From: a virus
Virus record (IMG/VR): IMGVR_UViG_3300045107_000440
Location: 1 to 64,000 of that record
DNA length: 64,000 bases
Direction: 5' to 3' (one strand)
In this document: one piece after another, positions 23,068 to 53,602 of the stretch
How the letters are laid out: each line of letters opens with the position of its first letter
Numbering within the stretch: position 1 is the first letter of the stretch
Notes under the pieces: model-generated
Told to the model about the DNA's origin: nothing
The model's input: only the letters and a program-made list of their open reading frames with translations
The model's database searches: none
Made by a program: the position numbers and the translations under genes

Positions 23068-23314
23068 TGTAAATTTTTTCTTTTTTAAGGTTAATGATGA
23101 GGATGTCAATTTCGTTCAATTGAATTTTCTTCAGATAAAATTCTGTTGGGTCCATCGAGTCCTTGCGTAGTTTTAGCACCTCGCGGTTGGCCTCCGTATT
23201 TTCTTCAAGGAAAGAAAGCAGTTGATCGGGGCTGACTGCGATTTCGCGCAATTTCTCTGCAAGAGAAGTCTCTTTATTGATATGCAATTCGATGTTCTTC
23301 ACAGATTTTTTCAA
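23054..23314 (-). CDS. hypothetical protein
   Basis: Track ORF lying between the regulator and the CPPxC protein. Confidence 0.45.
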   Translation of the reverse strand: MKKSVKNIELHINKETSLAEKLREIAVSPDQLLSFLEENTEANREVLKLRKDSMDPTEFYLKKIQLNEIDILIINLKKEKIYNGNI

Positions 23315-24227
23315 GGGCCCTGACTCTTTGTTTTAGTAGCTCAACGAGGTCTTTGTGTATATTGATGTTCTCAACCAGTCTTTTATTTTCGTCTTTCAAC
23401 GTCTCATTCTCCTTGGCGAGTAATCGATTTACATGGTCAAAGGTATCAGTTTGTTCATTCGTGTCAATACCTTTTGATAAATCTTTTTTCAATTCATCCT
23501 TATTTTCTTGAAAAAGTTTCTGTAGAGACAATTTTTCCATTTTGTTAGGAGTGGTCTTTCCTTTCTCCCAGTTCACAATTGTAGCTCTTGTTACTTGCAG
23601 ATTATCAGCAAGCTCTTCCTGAGTAAAGCCAAATTTCTTTCTATTATAACGTAGCCACTCTGCATCGGATTTTTCATTTTTTGGAAGTCCTTCGAAATAA
23701 GTCTTTAAAATCTGATATTCTTTATAGTCTGGATTCCCGCGGCCCTGTTCCCACGCATTTATCAAGTGCGACTTTATTCCGGTTGCTTCCGAAACCTGTC
23801 GCTGGCTTAATCCAAACTCAATTCGATATTCTTTTATGTTTAAATCCATATTTGTGTTTTGATTTTGTGGTTCTTGATCATTAAAAAGAGCTTCTAAAGA
23901 TTTGATTTCCATTTTATTAGGAGTTGTAAATCCGCGCTCCCACCGAGCTATTGTGTCTCTTGTTATTTGTAATCGCTTAGCTAAATCTTCTTGAGTAAAA
24001 TTATGCTTAGTCCTGTTTTTTCGAATCCAAACTGGCACATCGTTTGATTTTGGATTTGTTTTCAGGTCTTCAAAAAACTTTATAAGTATATCATGGTCTT
24101 TGACTTTAGGCTGTGATCCAAACCTTTCCCATCCTGCAATTCGATCCCTGGGAATACCAGTTTGCTCCGAAAGTTCTTGCTGAGATAAGCCAAATTGAGT
24201 TCTTAATTCTTTGATATTGAGGCGCAT
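23274..24227 (-). CDS. transcriptional regulator with four tandem XRE-type HTH domains plus a coiled coil (repressor candidate)
   Basis: Four HTH units: ELRTQFGLSQQELSEQTGIPRDRIAGWE, KHNFTQEDLAKRLQITRDTIARWE, EYRIEFGLSQRQVSEATGIKSHLINAWE and KKFGFTQEELADNLQVTRATIVNWE. They are arranged as an (A-B)x2 duplication. The gene is divergent from the early operon. Confidence 0.75.
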   Translation of the reverse strand: MRLNIKELRTQFGLSQQELSEQTGIPRDRIAGWERFGSQPKVKDHDILIKFFEDLKTNPKSNDVPVWIRKNRTKHNFTQEDLAKRLQITRDTIARWERGFTTPNKMEIKSLEALFNDQEPQNQNTNMDLNIKEYRIEFGLSQRQVSEATGIKSHLINAWEQGRGNPDYKEYQILKTYFEGLPKNEKSDAEWLRYNRKKFGFTQEELADNLQVTRATIVNWEKGKTTPNKMEKLSLQKLFQENKDELKKDLSKGIDTNEQTDTFDHVNRLLAKENETLKDENKRLVENINIHKDLVELLKQRVRALEKICEEHRIAYQ

Positions 24228-28419: not shown

Positions 28420-28664
28420 GCGTCAACGAAGAATACGAGATGAAATTCCAGGAGTGCAAGAAGTACATTCCTTATGGGTTTATGAAAAAACTTTCTCAGA
28501 AGTTCGCGACCGACAAGAAGAACCCGGTGCAGTACATCCGGCAGGCGACAAAGAAAGGAAGGACGTTCACGAACTCCGATGTGGATCAGGCAATAATAGC
28601 CGAGGCTTTGAAGCAAATGCGCTCAAAGCAGGAGGTTATAAACAGGATAAACCAATTTATTTGA
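28416..28664 (+). CDS. hypothetical early protein
   Basis: ATG 28416 overlaps the upstream stop (ATGA). The track ORF starts at GTG 28404. Confidence 0.5.
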   Translation: MSVNEEYEMKFQECKKYIPYGFMKKLSQKFATDKKNPVQYIRQATKKGRTFTNSDVDQAIIAEALKQMRSKQEVINRINQFI

Positions 28665-28903
28665 TGATCAAGCTATCAAAGATAAAAAAGGCCAGGTACG
28701 AGATGGAAACTGAGGAGGAACAGAAGCACTTTAAAAGTGACTTCCTCGACATCTTCATCCTGTGCTTTTTCGCCATGATAGGGGTAGTTTGTGTTATGCT
28801 CCTGGCTGTAAGACTAGCGTTCTACGAGGACATGACGGGCCTTGCCGGGGTGTTATTTATTCTTCTGGCTGTCGCAGGAGCGGTATTGATGAGCAGGCGA
28901 TGA
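28664..28903 (+). CDS. small two-helix membrane protein
   Basis: ATG 28664 inside track ORF 28454..28903 (MIKLSKIKKARYEM...); two hydrophobic helices. Confidence 0.45.
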   Translation: MIKLSKIKKARYEMETEEEQKHFKSDFLDIFILCFFAMIGVVCVMLLAVRLAFYEDMTGLAGVLFILLAVAGAVLMSRR

Positions 28904-29061
28904 CCAAAAGAGAAAGATTGATGGAAAACATGATAAAGCACCGCCAGCGCGAGATGCTGACATCCCCAAATTTGGGATACAACCGAATGGAATTGTGGAT
29001 AGCTAAGGTGCAGAAGATGAAGGAAAAGTTGGAAAGTAGAAAGGTAAAAAAGGAAAATTGA
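28900..29061 (+). CDS. small hypothetical protein
   Basis: ATG 28900 overlaps the upstream stop (MTKRERLMENMIKHRQ...). Confidence 0.4.
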   Translation: MTKRERLMENMIKHRQREMLTSPNLGYNRMELWIAKVQKMKEKLESRKVKKEN

Positions 29062-29160
29062 TTTTTTGAATTTTAAAATAAGGGTTCTGCAAAACTTACT
29101 AAGCCCTTCGATAACCAGTGATCGATAAAAAGAAAGTCCTAGTTTTTGATTAGGTGGAAT

Positions 29161-29253
29161 CTGGGTAGTGTTACGACTTCACGAACCCAGTCAATTGGAT
29201 TGCCGAAAGGCTGAAATAAGAACACCTCCGCTGCGGGTTATTAACACTCCTTT
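29161..29253. other. non-coding element with 16S-rRNA-3'-end-like motifs
   Basis: tgttacgacttcac (29169-82) and cccagtca (29186-93) match the reverse complement of the conserved ...TGACTGGGGTGAAGTCGTAACA... segment. gaacacctcc (29220-29) and aacactccttt (29243-53) resemble the Bacteroidota 16S 3' tail. Hairpins at 29161-66/29185-90 and 29202-11. Confidence 0.4.
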
Positions 29254-29411
29254 AAAAGTAGGAATTGACAAGGGCGGGTGATTAAAAGCTAAGAAGCCCA
29301 ATACTGGTTAAATACTGGGCTTCCTCTATTGGACACTTGATTTGCTCATGACAAGCAAAGATAGTAAATCCAAGGAGAAGAAGTCGTATGTCTAATTGAA
29401 AAAGTTTAAAC

Positions 29412-29732
29412 ATGGAAAAAACTATCGAACAGAGGGCAAATGACTTTAAAGAGAAGCTAGCGCCATTTCTTAAAGACTTCGGAAGAGACACATTGAATGA
29501 CTTTTTTTACTACTGGACAGAGCACAATGAAGGGGGCCGGAAGATGCGATTTGAAATGCAAAAGGTTTTCAACGTAAAGAGACGTCTTGCCACATGGAAA
29601 AGGAACGAATCAAGGTATAATTTCAAGCCAAATGCAACAGGGATTAATCAAAAGCAACAACACTCAATCAGCCTCGCTCAGTCAACGATCGATCATTACG
29701 CTGATGTGCTCAAGCAAAATGGCGGAGGTTAG
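29412..29732 (+). CDS. hypothetical early protein
   Basis: Track ORF; first gene after the 350-nt non-coding gap. Confidence 0.55.
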   Translation: MEKTIEQRANDFKEKLAPFLKDFGRDTLNDFFYYWTEHNEGGRKMRFEMQKVFNVKRRLATWKRNESRYNFKPNATGINQKQQHSISLAQSTIDHYADVLKQNGGG

Positions 29733-30390
29733 CGCAATGCTTCCGAGCACGATTGTAGAGGCCTTAGAACTGTCTCCCATATCGGAAATGAAGAAACATG
29801 TGCCTGAAAAGAACATTGAAGCATTCATAGCGATAGAATTGAACAAATTGGCCTCTATGTTTAACGGAGACAGCCGATTGAACCTTCAGCCTAACCAAAT
29901 ACCGTTCATAGCCAACGCGCTTATAAACGAATTTAAAAACGAAAATCTGGCTGATTTCGTGATTTGCTTTAAAAGGGGTCTTATTGGCAAGTATGACGAA
30001 AAGCTGCTTCGGTTAGATGTTCACGTCATCTTCCAATGGATGCGGAAGTACCTGGATGAAAAGTACGAGGCGCTTGAAAACAAATTAATGGCCGAAAAGA
30101 CGCCAAAGGAAGATCAAAATTTACTTCCTGTTAAAACCAAAGAATCTGATTTCAATGGCTTGGAGTATTGGATGAAATACAATGGTTTCAAGGAGCCTAA
30201 AAAAGACAGTTCAGGAGAGTTTGCTCGGGAGGCAGTCCTTTTCCAATCAAAGAGAAAAAATTGGGATGTGGTTGTCGAAGATGAAGCCGGAAACGTCATC
30301 GGAAAAATTGAGAGCGTCTATGCCGAAAGTCAGGAGGATGCGAATAAGATGGTAGAGAAATTAATTAAATCAGGACAAATAAAACTATGA
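29719..30390 (+). CDS. hypothetical early protein
   Basis: ATG 29719 (MAEVSAMLPST...) within track ORF 29587..30390. Confidence 0.5.
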   Translation: MAEVSAMLPSTIVEALELSPISEMKKHVPEKNIEAFIAIELNKLASMFNGDSRLNLQPNQIPFIANALINEFKNENLADFVICFKRGLIGKYDEKLLRLDVHVIFQWMRKYLDEKYEALENKLMAEKTPKEDQNLLPVKTKESDFNGLEYWMKYNGFKEPKKDSSGEFAREAVLFQSKRKNWDVVVEDEAGNVIGKIESVYAESQEDANKMVEKLIKSGQIKL

Positions 30391-30686
30391 AAAAGATCAG
30401 ACACATGTCAGTAAGTATCGAAGGACTGCTTCGTAATCACTTAGGTAAGAAAATTAATTTCATGGAAGATGATAACGGTAAGCCGATGACTGACAAACAG
30501 GCTCGCGCTGAAATTGCAATACTTCAAGCTAAAGGACATAAACTAATACCGGCATCGAATAAGTGCGTTGGCTTTGATCCATTTGGCGGAGGATGCCCAG
30601 GCCATGAAGTCCCAGAAGACCCACGCGACAACCCAATTACAGGAGATGATCAGTGGATTCATGATGTGGATATGGGGGCAAAATAA
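30387..30686 (+). CDS. hypothetical protein (Cys/His cluster CVGFDPFGGGCPGH)
   Basis: Track ORF; 4-nt overlap upstream. Confidence 0.55.
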   Translation: MKKIRHMSVSIEGLLRNHLGKKINFMEDDNGKPMTDKQARAEIAILQAKGHKLIPASNKCVGFDPFGGGCPGHEVPEDPRDNPITGDDQWIHDVDMGAK

Positions 30687-30726
30687 AAATAATAAAACAC
30701 AATTCATTTTTAAATACATAACCACT

Positions 30727-31113
30727 ATGATCCCTGAACACGTACAACAAATTATCGACAAATTGAAAGAAGCAGGAATAAAGCCCAATACAGACCGCGT
30801 GGCCATCATTCCAGACACCCCGGAGCAAATGACAAAATCAGGGCTGTTCATCCCTGACACGGCAAAAGAAAGGCCAGAGACAGGATGGATTGTGGCGGTA
30901 GGAACCGGGAAACTAATCGATCAATTGATTTACAACCACCTGATTGAAGTGCGAAAGAAACTTGATCCTGCCTTTGAGGAAACGGAAGTTCCCGTTCAAT
31001 ACCAGGTCGGGGAGCACGTGTTGTTTGGCCGCCACGCAGGCACCGAACTGGAATACAAGGACATCAAGTTCATTGTCATGCGCGAAAGCGAGATTGCTTT
31101 TACCTTGGATTAA
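30727..31113 (+). CDS. groES: co-chaperonin GroES/Cpn10 homologue with an insertion
   Basis: IKPNTDRVAIIP...KSGLFIPDTAKERPETGWIVAVGTGK...VGEHVLFGRHAGTELEYKDIKFIVMRESEIAFTL follows the GroES consensus. Confidence 0.75.
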   Translation: MIPEHVQQIIDKLKEAGIKPNTDRVAIIPDTPEQMTKSGLFIPDTAKERPETGWIVAVGTGKLIDQLIYNHLIEVRKKLDPAFEETEVPVQYQVGEHVLFGRHAGTELEYKDIKFIVMRESEIAFTLD

Positions 31114-36005: not shown

Positions 36006-36680
36006 TTAAGCGTATTTGATTATGCCAGCAAAGTTTTCCGGGGTCATGTAGCGCGTTTTGAGCGCCACGGTCTTCACATCCTCGTGGTCGCCAAATATTT
36101 CCCTCTCCAGGGCGTCAAGGCTCGCGTGAATCTTGTCGCATTGCTCGCGTAACTTGGTTTTCTCCGTGGCGGCCTTGTACTTGTCGATGTCTTCCGGAAT
36201 GTCATCGTAGTCTACCTTCTTCTTGCCTTCATCATCGGTCGTGACGGTTTTGCGTTTCTTTCCGGTTTTACCATCGATTTGCTCCCAGCGCAGGCGTGTG
36301 TATTCATCCAACTCTTGGGTGAGGGTCTGCCACTCGCGGTACTTGCGATTGTGGTATATTTCCTTGAAAAAGCAGTCCAAAAGCGTCAAAAGCGCTTCAT
36401 CCGTGCAGTCAAAGAGCGCCCGCAGGTTGTCGGAATCCTGATATCCTGCCAGGTCGGCCGCGTGCTTCTTGCGAGAAGACAAGTCCGAGACCTCACGTAT
36501 TAAATCACTTCCGGGATCGTAGAGGAAAATAATGTATCGGATGAGAAGGTTCTTTTTTGGCGCGCGCAGTTTCTTTATTACCTCGTATTTGGCCAATTCA
36601 GGGAATTTCTCCAGCACGTCATCTTCCGGGGGGAAATCGTAGATTTTGAACTTCAGCTTTTGAAAACGGATGATATTCAT
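36006..36680 (-). CDS. hypothetical protein, small-terminase candidate by position
   Basis: ATG at 36680 (MNIIRFQKLKF...) overlaps the upstream stop. Its stop abuts the terL start. Confidence 0.4.
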   Translation of the reverse strand: MNIIRFQKLKFKIYDFPPEDDVLEKFPELAKYEVIKKLRAPKKNLLIRYIIFLYDPGSDLIREVSDLSSRKKHAADLAGYQDSDNLRALFDCTDEALLTLLDCFFKEIYHNRKYREWQTLTQELDEYTRLRWEQIDGKTGKKRKTVTTDDEGKKKVDYDDIPEDIDKYKAATEKTKLREQCDKIHASLDALEREIFGDHEDVKTVALKTRYMTPENFAGIIKYA

Positions 36681-36922
36681 TCGATGGCGATTATTGAAGC
36701 TGGCTTGATGATTACATAGGATTGGCCGTTGAATTGGATTTGATCTCCGGCATACTTCTGGAATACAATGGTGGTCCCCATAGGGATTTTGCCATCCGAG
36801 CATTCAACTACCCCACGGTGGACGGTCTGGCCTTTCTTTAAGAAAAGCGGGGGTATGATTACGTTCTTGGATTCTTCGGGCGGGAAAGGTTTTACTAGGA
36901 TATTCTGGTTTCTGGCGATCAT
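36677..36922 (-). CDS. second GroES/Cpn10-like protein (81 aa)
   Basis: NILVKPFPPEE...IIPP...HRGVVECSDGKIPMGTTIVFQKYAGDQIQFNGQSYVIIKPASIIAIE fits the GroES fold pattern. Confidence 0.55.
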   Translation of the reverse strand: MIARNQNILVKPFPPEESKNVIIPPLFLKKGQTVHRGVVECSDGKIPMGTTIVFQKYAGDQIQFNGQSYVIIKPASIIAIE

Positions 36923-39262: not shown

Positions 39263-40081
39263 TTATTTTGAAGTAACGGTTTCAAACGTCAAAATCTGAT
39301 CTTGCCTGAGAACAAAATACTTACCTCCTTCAATCTCCACCATGTTTCGAAGTTTAGGTTTGTACAATACATGATCTCCGGCTTTCATGTATCGTCTATC
39401 GCCTTTTAAAGGGCTTCCGATGTGCGCTACTTTACCTACTCTCTCCTTATGGCCAGGCGCTACTTTAATTTGCAGCCATTCGCTTTTTGGTCTTTCAATG
39501 GGTTCGCCCAAACTGTTTTTGTACGGGTAGTACGTAGGTCTTAGTATCTCATCCCAGCTTTCGAAAATGGGATCAATCAAGACATTTGATCCGATGGGGA
39601 TTATCTTACCTTCCCTCACTGCGCAGATAATCTGATCGTAAGGAACTTTGAAAATCCATTGTTTCGGTGAGCCCTTGCTTTCGGCCACTTTGTTTCCCAT
39701 GCTCATAAGAACCCGCCAGCGGAAGTATATTTTATCCCCCTCTTGAATCTCCTGCGGAATGTCGGACATGAATTTGAATTCAAAATTTCCACCGGTGGAA
39801 TACAGGGAAGTTGAAATCTCTTCATCTTCGTTATTTAAGTCCCTGGAAGCACCATAGACCGGGAAGCCGCTGGAAGCCTGGCTGATAGGGACGTTTGACA
39901 GGTCCACCGGTAATTTAATTACCTTCCCATGGCACTTCAAACGTTTTTCAGGCTGATAGCTGGTGTCTGCTTGAATGGTGAGCCCATTGAGCCCCTGTAC
40001 ACCTGTGTCTTCGTTGAAAATAGATCCTTCGATTAAGACAAGCACTGAGTTGTACCCAGCTTTTTTATAGTTACCAATCAT
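39263..40081 (-). CDS. hypothetical protein with GroES-like C-terminal segment
   Basis: The C-terminus ERVGKVAHIGSPL...KAGDHVLYKPKLRNMVEIEGGKYFVLRQDQIL resembles the GroES/S24 beta-barrel pattern. Low confidence for function. Confidence 0.55.
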   Translation of the reverse strand: MIGNYKKAGYNSVLVLIEGSIFNEDTGVQGLNGLTIQADTSYQPEKRLKCHGKVIKLPVDLSNVPISQASSGFPVYGASRDLNNEDEEISTSLYSTGGNFEFKFMSDIPQEIQEGDKIYFRWRVLMSMGNKVAESKGSPKQWIFKVPYDQIICAVREGKIIPIGSNVLIDPIFESWDEILRPTYYPYKNSLGEPIERPKSEWLQIKVAPGHKERVGKVAHIGSPLKGDRRYMKAGDHVLYKPKLRNMVEIEGGKYFVLRQDQILTFETVTSK

Positions 40082-51958: not shown

Positions 51959-52109
51959 GGGGTGTTAGCCTTTATTGGCAAAGGCTTCTCGATGTTAATT
52001 GCATCAGGGCAGTAGTTAAAATAAAATTATTGGTTGCAAACATGATTTTATAAATAGACCACGAAAGAAGCAAGCTTCTTTATTATCGGTTCGATTCCGA
52101 TACACTCCA
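51959..52109 (+). ncRNA. oversized tRNA-like gene (151 nt)
   Basis: Acceptor ggggtgt (51959-65) pairs with acactcc (52102-08), including G3-U70, with A73. It has a normal D arm gcc-tttattggcaaa-ggc and T arm atcgg-ttcgatt-ccgat. About 95 nt sit where a 17-nt anticodon arm is expected. Confidence 0.4.
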
Positions 52110-52783: not shown

Positions 52784-53602
52784 TTGGAATTCGGGGGAGA
52801 GAACCTCACCTTCCAGGAGATAACTTCTGAGTGGCTCAGAAGATTTGAAAAGGCTCCATCGATGAAGAAAGATAAGGATGGAAACTCCTACCCAAGGAGC
52901 AAATCTACCATAGGTTTCTACCTGCGGCCTTTGCGTAAAGTTTTCAATAGAGCGATTAAAATGCGCCTAGTGTCCTCCGAGTTCTACCCCTTCGGGGATC
53001 AAGGGTATAAAATTAAGAAAGGGAAGAACGTTAAGAAAGCTTTGAGTACCGAGCAGAAAAATCAATTGCTGGTTTATTCCCCGAACTCAGATAAAGAACA
53101 GGAGGCGTGGGATTACTTTGTCTTCAGTTACTTCTGTAACGGCATGAACTTTGCTGACATCGCTAAGATTCAAAGGAAACACATTACAGAAAGGTCTATC
53201 TTGTTTTACCGGCAGAAGACCGACAGCGAGATCATTGAAATCCCTTTGAGAAAGGAGATACGGGAAATCATTTTACGCAGAGGCGTGCATGATCTATCAC
53301 CTCATGCTTTTGTCTTCCCGATCTACACTCACAATATGAGTGCCCAGGATAAATTGGAGAAGAAAAAAGAGTGGATTAAAAAGACAAATGAGGAGCTGGA
53401 GATCATATCAAAGAACCTGAATTTTCCCTTTAAGTTAACGACCTACCATGCCAGACATACGTTTGCTACCGTGGCTTTAAGAAATGGCGCTCCAAAGGAG
53501 TTTATTCAAAAGGCGTTGGGACACACGAGCATGAACACCACAGAAAATTATCTGGCAGATCTTGAATTTGATGTTAAGAAGGCTGTTTCGGATGGGCTGT
53601 AG
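52784..53602 (+). CDS. int: tyrosine recombinase/integrase, possibly degenerate
   Basis: C-terminal box HARHTFAT...LGHTSMNTTENYL is present. The only canonical-type start is TTG 52784, although the frame and SAM-like-domain-type sequence stay open back to 52601. The expected first catalytic Arg position reads N (CNGMNFADI). Confidence 0.65.
   Translation: MEFGGENLTFQEITSEWLRRFEKAPSMKKDKDGNSYPRSKSTIGFYLRPLRKVFNRAIKMRLVSSEFYPFGDQGYKIKKGKNVKKALSTEQKNQLLVYSPNSDKEQEAWDYFVFSYFCNGMNFADIAKIQRKHITERSILFYRQKTDSEIIEIPLRKEIREIILRRGVHDLSPHAFVFPIYTHNMSAQDKLEKKKEWIKKTNEELEIISKNLNFPFKLTTYHARHTFATVALRNGAPKEFIQKALGHTSMNTTENYLADLEFDVKKAVSDGL

Follow-up and report, generated by a model that had tools for sequence, protein, structure and literature searches.

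A conserved, probably structured RNA element and its predicted antisense RNA beside a truncated replication initiator gene in a tailed phage

A non-coding gap in the early region of a tailed phage contains a conserved element (29076-29390, plus strand), present in a single copy in the genome and predicted to yield a sense RNA of 315 nt. Together with its homologs, this element displays sequence conservation, covarying helices, promoter and terminator signals on the opposite strand, and a gene context that connects it to replication. Our preferred reading, to which we assign a probability of roughly 0.42, is that two overlapping RNAs, the long sense RNA and a shorter antisense RNA, control phage DNA replication, most likely as an RNA-defined origin.

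The element and its phage

The window, i.e. the whole 64,000-nt stretch of DNA analyzed here, covers the greater part of a complete phage genome of 68,688 bp that carries direct terminal repeats. Every named host among the 87 terminase matches belongs to Flavobacteriaceae, and the relatives include Pachyviridae, so that the host of this phage very likely belongs to Bacteroidota. The early region is lambda-like, with a repressor-like gene, RecT, the gap, a gene for a 106-aa protein and a DUF6633-like gene, in this order; GC skew merely tracks the direction of transcription. The repressor-like protein (317 aa; 23274-24227) contains four HTH-like repeats and is encoded divergently from the early operon. 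The phage has 22 called tRNAs and an integrase-like gene, a tyrosine integrase-like ORF of only 246 aa (52862-53602) that adjoins tRNA genes and the N-terminal part of which is possibly missing. A GroES-like gene is located at 39263-40081 (Cpn10 domain confirmed); another candidate (30604-31113) is GroES-like by eye only, and a third lies at 36677-36922.

Pattern scans recovered homologs of the element in phage-like contigs (L040/L041/L091, L092, L093 and L094), which makes five copies with that in the window, i.e. four other phage sequences, in three lineages at 70-73% identity. In the alignment, 176 of the 322 columns are invariant and identity across copies ranges from 70 to 90%; the flanking genes differ, with four different arrangements of the gene after the element among the five copies. 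A search of the element region against Rfam 15 (E ≤ 10) produced no real match, only chance ones, as did a search of the related loci (E ≤ 1), and blastn against E. coli genomes, phages and plasmids returned nothing meaningful. In five type-A pattern scans and in IMG/VR, L040/L041 are the only real matches and the remaining ones are due to chance, as are all four matches in the GTDB scan. The element was not found in 401 sampled genomes of the phylum, and DNA contigs from sequencing runs contained only near-identical pieces of it.

Coding use of the element was rejected, given the absence of a conserved open frame, the indels and the compensatory stems. The element is very probably a real structured RNA. 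The literature compared here, as distinct from large unannotated candidate sets such as PMC10690425, does not describe this RNA family, which appears to be undescribed; the family is unusually ornate and, having no Rfam match, appears new.

Plus-strand fold and predicted antisense RNA

The preliminary description of this sequence had suggested a small RNA with a stem (29161-66/29185-90) and a GAAA hairpin (29202-29211). The positions of these and of all its other motifs are correct, and its view of the gap as a structured non-coding RNA with a real stem and a GNRA hairpin is backed by covariation, the hairpin (P6) showing compensatory changes and the stem (P5) itself being invariant. We traced by hand a fold of 12 nested helices and two pseudoknots, with registers chosen by the authors and with P2 treated as analogous rather than column-aligned. 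With these hand-set registers, 364 of the 370 cells pair, 26 of the 74 pairs are compensatory, and G-U and A-C types on the plus strand stand at 8 to 1. In the unedited MAFFT alignment, 97.7% of the cells pair and 9 of the 43 pairs are compensatory, compared with 32-43% of the cells in slid controls; the shuffle figure is not a probability because there are only three lineages. Constrained folds lie within 1-5 kcal/mol of the minimum.

Two hairpins open the fold, namely P1 (29083-86/29102-05), with a U-G to U-A change, and P2 (29108-12/29121-25), which has 5 bp in all copies, formed by three different sequences. The central domain (29142-29289) is closed by P3 (29142-50/29281-89), and compensatory changes are present in P3, P4 (29152-56/29223-27), P6 and P7 (29228-32/29273-77), as well as in hairpin P8 (29293-29323), where they affect six of the eight stem pairs. 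The 3' domain (29324-29388) consists of P9 (29324-26/29375-77), P10 (29330-33/29369-72) and the 3' strand of PK2; an invariant UGGA (29196-99) is an alternative partner for P10. PK1, a predicted pseudoknot of 6 bp in which C-G is exchanged for U-A, has its 5' strand in the P2 loop (29114-29119), which pairs with the P8 loop (29303-29308). The second predicted pseudoknot, PK2, pairs 29172-29180 with 29380-29388 through 9 bp that are invariant in all five copies. Being invariant, PK2, P5, P9 and P10 are without covariation support.

On the minus strand, a Bacteroidota sigma-A −7 promoter box (TAnnTTTG; 29356-29363) is present in all five copies, with variation confined to the two n positions, and 0.12 such boxes are expected per 330 nt. 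Three homologs carry TACATTTG, and the phage has seven instances of this box, the majority in A/T-rich DNA immediately before genes. Given that the Bacteroidota box occupies positions −12 to −5 (PMC9723704), the predicted +1 is near 29351, from which an antisense RNA of ~69 nt (29283-29351, minus strand) would extend to an intrinsic-terminator-like hairpin (29291-29325) and a U-rich tail; the predicted length is 68-71 nt in all five copies. On this strand, P8 becomes a hairpin of 13-16 bp (z = −5.1), followed by the U-rich tail, and gains conserved G-U pairs that are impossible on the plus strand. The invariant GCAAA in the promoter box could alternatively be kept by a local hairpin. These signals suggest that the element probably has an antisense partner RNA.

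Such an antisense RNA would overlap the last third of the element, at its 3' end. Its predicted loop is a copy of the P2-loop sequence, with a YUNR motif, which the P8 loop carries on both strands. With such a loop, the antisense RNA would be a competitor for the P8 loop and prevent PK1 from forming.

Resemblance to 16S rRNA

The same gap had been read as a mimic, an antisense or a captured fragment of 16S rRNA, such that the P5 loop would pair with the top of helix 44, or the minus strand would imitate it. We consider this reading highly improbable. The rRNA sequences quoted in support of it are correct: many Bacteroidota 16S genes end in GAACACCTCCTTT, and the alignment with E. coli holds, the minus strand of 29169-29193 matching rrsH 1481-1502 over 8 + 14 nt with a 3-nt insertion. 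This match is real, lies inside the invariant core, and has a local score of 35, reached by none of the 900 phage tiles of the null set. The corresponding Gumbel p-value is about 4 × 10−4 per 350-nt tile but about 0.07 per 64-kb window, and the assertion that such a combination is unlikely by chance is not confirmed; 16S of the host phylum mostly scores at chance level. A 17-mer and another 14-mer in the window match E. coli 16S elsewhere; the former (52064-52080), an exact 17-nt antisense match near E. coli 16S position 93, exceeds the 14-mer discussed here and serves as an example of a chance match.

Among eight aligned Bacteroidota 16S sequences, the antisense score is 22 in seven, six of which retain an 11-mer complementary to the phage stretch, and 30 in the remaining one. 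The 11 nt and the score of 30 speak for the reading; a score of 22, however, is the mean of the 900 phage tiles, 484 of which reach it. The 14-mer requires GTG before AAGTCG, a combination found in none of 30 16S genes sampled from the phylum of a Bacteroidaceae genome. Moreover, the 14-mer requires an E. coli-type rRNA, whereas the 10-mer requires a Bacteroidota-type rRNA on the opposite strand, so that their odds cannot be combined as though all three matches fell on a single rRNA; none of the 16S genes examined contains all three motifs together.

The stretch that appears antisense to 16S (29169-29193) includes, in the loop of P5, the 5' strand of PK2. In each of the five copies, this 9-mer, which resembles the decoding site, is perfectly complementary to a segment of the element itself 200 nt further downstream. 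A 16S-sense piece is also present because this PK2 partner supplies it; the predicted minus-strand transcript stops about 90 nt short of the 16S-sense motif. In the ribosomal A-site, A1492 and A1493 are unpaired; in contrast to that internal loop, the PK2 helix is fully Watson-Crick paired. The anti-SD-like 10-mer (29220-29229), previously interpreted as sense for the anti-SD tail, forms the 3' strand of P4 and the first part of P7; its sequence is not conserved but co-varies with its partner and is absent in all four homologs. Conservation of the motifs in related phages is accordingly split, the 14-mer and the 8-mer being invariant in the five copies and both anti-SD-like tracts missing in the other four.

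The Rfam SSU models do not match the gap, and the model of the element core misses two 16S loci. With the element mismatching the 16S of the host phylum, its likeness to the 16S 3' minor domain (helix 44 top and anti-SD) appears to be a sequence coincidence of 9-14 nt only, and we judge the resemblance of 29169-29193 to be due to chance. This result disposes of the attractive but misleading idea that the phage imitates the decoding site of the ribosome.

Replication genes and candidate functions

The gene after the gap (29412-29732, plus strand) encodes a 106-aa protein that corresponds to the C-terminal domain alone of a lambda-O-like replication initiator, with a weak lead suggesting that it is DnaT-like. 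The protein matches positions 138-210 of the 224 positions of phrog_19415 and the C-terminal end of phi13:2 gp006, whose gene lies ahead of that for a DnaC-like loader. Most of its relatives have 115-205 extra N-terminal residues, and its C-terminal domain is homologous to full-length initiators that precede loaders. Atlas leads point to DUF7833 (0.90) and DnaT (0.89), and fold searches of the domain were uninformative (best Z 6.1). The domain begins at residue 2, i.e. the gene lacks the N-terminal DNA-binding domain, and no iteron-like repeats were found in 28800-29800. The next gene (29737-30390, plus strand) encodes a 217-aa DUF6633-like protein which, judging from gene order, occupies the position of the helicase loader.

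When N-terminal initiator domains were searched for with 95 queries, 25 control loci were matched, and this genome gave one weak off-target match only; DUF6291, Lin1244_N and DnaB_C were not found in the complete genome, and the positive controls worked. An initiator devoid of its DNA-binding half, in a complete genome where neither such a half nor DnaB was found elsewhere, counts in favor of an origin at the element. The genome possibly encodes an unrecognised origin-binding protein and, with RecT and an integrase-like gene present, recombination-dependent replication starts are possible as well. In two loci (L008:2480-3306 and L101:2780-3462), full-length initiator genes show an apparent frameshift between the two domains.

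A C-terminal-only initiator follows the element directly in the window and in L093, and after one small gene in L040 and L092, that is, in four of the five copies, L094 being the exception. These initiators represent two domain families, those of L093, L040 and L092 belonging to a family other than that of the window. Of 29 loci with full-length initiators, 28 have an upstream gap of at most 177 nt; the gap measures 270-355 nt for three close relatives that are short, and other long non-coding gaps before C-terminal-only initiators occur in L095, L098/L102, P0002 and P0003. In a prospective blind test of whether a C-terminal-only protein implies an upstream gap, none of three cases had one (the genes around one of them are Mu-like), and the short C-terminal-only forms of gut phages have no upstream gap either, so that truncation does not imply the element. 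The link runs from the element to the truncated initiator (four of five), not in reverse. Pairs of a C-terminal-only initiator and a loader-like gene without an upstream gap were observed in L156/L157 (P0170), L152 and L158, one of them Mu-like, which suggests that gapless initiator/loader pairs load the helicase at forks made by other means.

About 75 nt upstream of the element lies a DnaA-box-like 9-mer with one mismatch (28994-29002, minus strand), and two more one-mismatch boxes in the same orientation are found at 28580 and 28403; all three are inside coding sequence, and their occurrence within 700 nt has a post hoc p of about 0.001. In L094, where the element sits after the portal gene without an adjacent initiator, a pair of perfect DnaA boxes separated by 12 nt and a near-perfect third box (1175-1216) are all located within the 70 nt upstream of the element, against a background of five in 605 kb (likewise a post hoc comparison); of the five copies, this is the only one with perfect boxes in tandem. 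The apparent plus-strand promoter box of L094 overlaps these DnaA boxes and may be a by-product of them.

Under the origin mechanism that we favor, the sense RNA would be made within the rightward early transcript; in the window, the 600 nt upstream of the element contain no plus-strand promoter box of its own. With PK1 and PK2 formed, the sense RNA would stay hybridised to the template or prime synthesis, like ColE1 RNA II, and the C-terminal-only protein together with the loader (or, in copies flanked by DnaA boxes, host DnaA) would then bring the host helicase onto the displaced strand. The ~69-nt antisense RNA, by competing for the P8 loop and blocking PK1, would switch the element off. 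Transcription, both pseudoknots in vivo, the antisense action and the origin activity are predictions from comparative sequence analysis, which covers only three independent lineages of the element. A bolder version, to which we give less credence, holds that these Bacteroidota phages swapped the origin-binding half of the initiator and the iterons for a doubly pseudoknotted origin RNA under the control of a ~69-nt antisense RNA, that is, an independently evolved RNA-based replicon.

An antisense-controlled expression switch is a possible but less likely reading and ranks close behind the origin mechanism. In such a switch, the fold would be a leader of the downstream genes that sets initiator and loader levels, with PK2 hiding the invariant AUG and the antisense RNA flipping the fold or triggering RNase III cleavage. 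PK2 indeed ends on the A of an invariant ATG (29388-29399, a 3-codon mini-ORF in the window), the preceding GGAG is paired in P9, and two invariant UGGA vie for one UCCA. In L040, L092 and L094, the following gene continues the frame of this ATG, which opens just 3 codons in the window and L093, and in L094 the element is followed only by a small unrelated ORF and then a terminator. The predicted antisense RNA has a position similar to that of the 77-nt OOP RNA (PMC3640518), immediately ahead of the initiator gene, and competition between a pseudoknot and an antisense RNA is the I-complex design (PMC10724649 and its references). However, the element stays 70-90% identical while the following gene varies four ways among the five copies, and Bacteroidota mRNAs generally lack SD sequences (PMC6847099). 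Furthermore, 315 nt with a 41-nt invariant core would exceed the usual need of a translational operator. Even as a regulatory leader, the element would represent a new antisense-versus-pseudoknot switch.

It seems unlikely that the element is a self-contained large structured RNA that works in trans, as a ribozyme or as a scaffold (GOLLD/ROOL/ARRPOF-like), or a single-stranded DNA structure, with the link to replication genes reflecting co-transcription in the early operon. The ornate fold, the long invariant single-stranded tracts and the change of gene contexts would suit such a molecule, the P3-P4-P5-P7-P8 layout is superficially like a group I core, and plasmid motifs of this size may act as single-stranded DNA (PMC5737381). 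Nevertheless, the element has neither an Rfam match nor a plus-strand terminator of its own, a group I P7 cannot be placed in the same register in all copies and has no bulged G-site, and the G-U bias and GNRA loops suit RNA better than DNA; the antisense promoter and the DnaA boxes would also be left unexplained. A group I intron was rejected, with only 1-2 nt between the P6-equivalent and P3, an unbulged pseudoknot helix and no Rfam match. RNase P, tmRNA, T-box and SAM-I were, in view of their motifs, rejected on topology or for want of a model match.

If it controls replication, the element would function like known antisense-controlled replication elements while being a member of none. For RNA-mediated initiation, only ColE1 and MRB plasmids are named (PMC3035462). 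The MRB replicons of Vibrionaceae (pB1067 RNA I/RNA II; PMC3035462) similarly have an ORF-free region, and their two complementary RNAs resemble those predicted here, with an RNA I of ~68 nt compared with the predicted 68-71 nt, and in both cases the letters of stems and loops vary among relatives and pairing is kept. Unlike MRB, the element resides in a tailed phage with a very likely Bacteroidota host, is followed by replication genes, has one long hairpin instead of two stem-loops, and shows no sequence similarity in the Rfam and plasmid BLAST searches; its origin role is a predicted one. With ColE1 it would share a long folded sense RNA, a shorter antisense RNA whose loop is suited to kissing and, plausibly, dependence on the host for helicase loading. 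In ColE1, the 5' end of RNA II is the part bound by RNA I, whereas here the antisense RNA would cover the 3' third; further differences are the absence of an Rfam match and of a sense promoter of its own in the window, and the two predicted pseudoknots. The arrangement common to ColE1 and MRB, two overlapping RNAs of which the short one has its own promoter and terminator, is predicted in all five copies from conserved signals.

In the rep leaders of IncI-alpha (ColIb-P9) and IncB plasmids, where Inc RNA opposes the repZ pseudoknot (references in PMC10724649), the antisense target loop otherwise forms a long-range pseudoknot ~100 nt upstream of the replication gene, which is also the arrangement predicted for the element. 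Here, however, the target loop pairs upstream, with the P2 loop, and a different loop pairs by the AUG, which the second pseudoknot covers. Compared with the translated leader of those plasmids, the element has no conserved leader peptide, its invariant ATG beginning a 3-codon frame in two copies and an open one in three; the initiator is half-sized and the element is about 315 nt long. Like the predicted antisense RNA, lambda OOP RNA (77 nt; PMC3640518) is a short leftward RNA whose promoter lies close to where the initiator gene begins, and the early operons are of the lambda type in both cases. OOP, however, overlaps the coding end of cII, the target here would be a large non-coding fold, and, unlike in lambda, the O-like gene lacks the origin-binding half. 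The ARRPOF, GEBRO and PAGEV motifs (PMC5737381) are also structured, 223-349 nt long and tied to replication regions, but they come from plasmids and other phyla, and the element has no match in Rfam 15 at E ≤ 10.

If the bolder version of the origin mechanism is correct, this would be an RNA-based replicon in a tailed phage, to be placed beside ColE1 and MRB. A phage version that works with a stand-alone initiator C-terminal domain would bear on the question of how replication begins in lambda-like phages devoid of an origin-binding domain, and it could yield a compact, tunable replicon for Bacteroidota genetics.

Other elements occur at similar positions. In L095 (4605-4955), an ORF-free element of ~350 nt located directly before a C-terminal-only initiator has a 9-bp long-range helix and a 7-bp pseudoknot candidate, and a few of its motifs recall the window element. 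A different, G+C-rich non-coding element of ~250 nt is found in L098 (1745-2015) and L102 (1-250), 2-3 small genes upstream of an initiator of the truncated family of L040/L092; it has no Rfam match, no model match and a folding z of −0.4, and a pattern search of IMG/VR found nothing. Covariance models of the core and the 3' half detected neither L095 nor L098/L102, so that homology to the window element is not established; should the bolder version of the origin mechanism be true, these unrelated elements might be further inventions of the same kind. L040/L092 have a tRNA-like stretch, not called by ARAGORN, after a long hairpin. This hairpin, behind a Bacteroidota promoter box, is shared between L040 (1455-1515, minus strand) and L098 (1690-1745), where it lies upstream of two unrelated elements.
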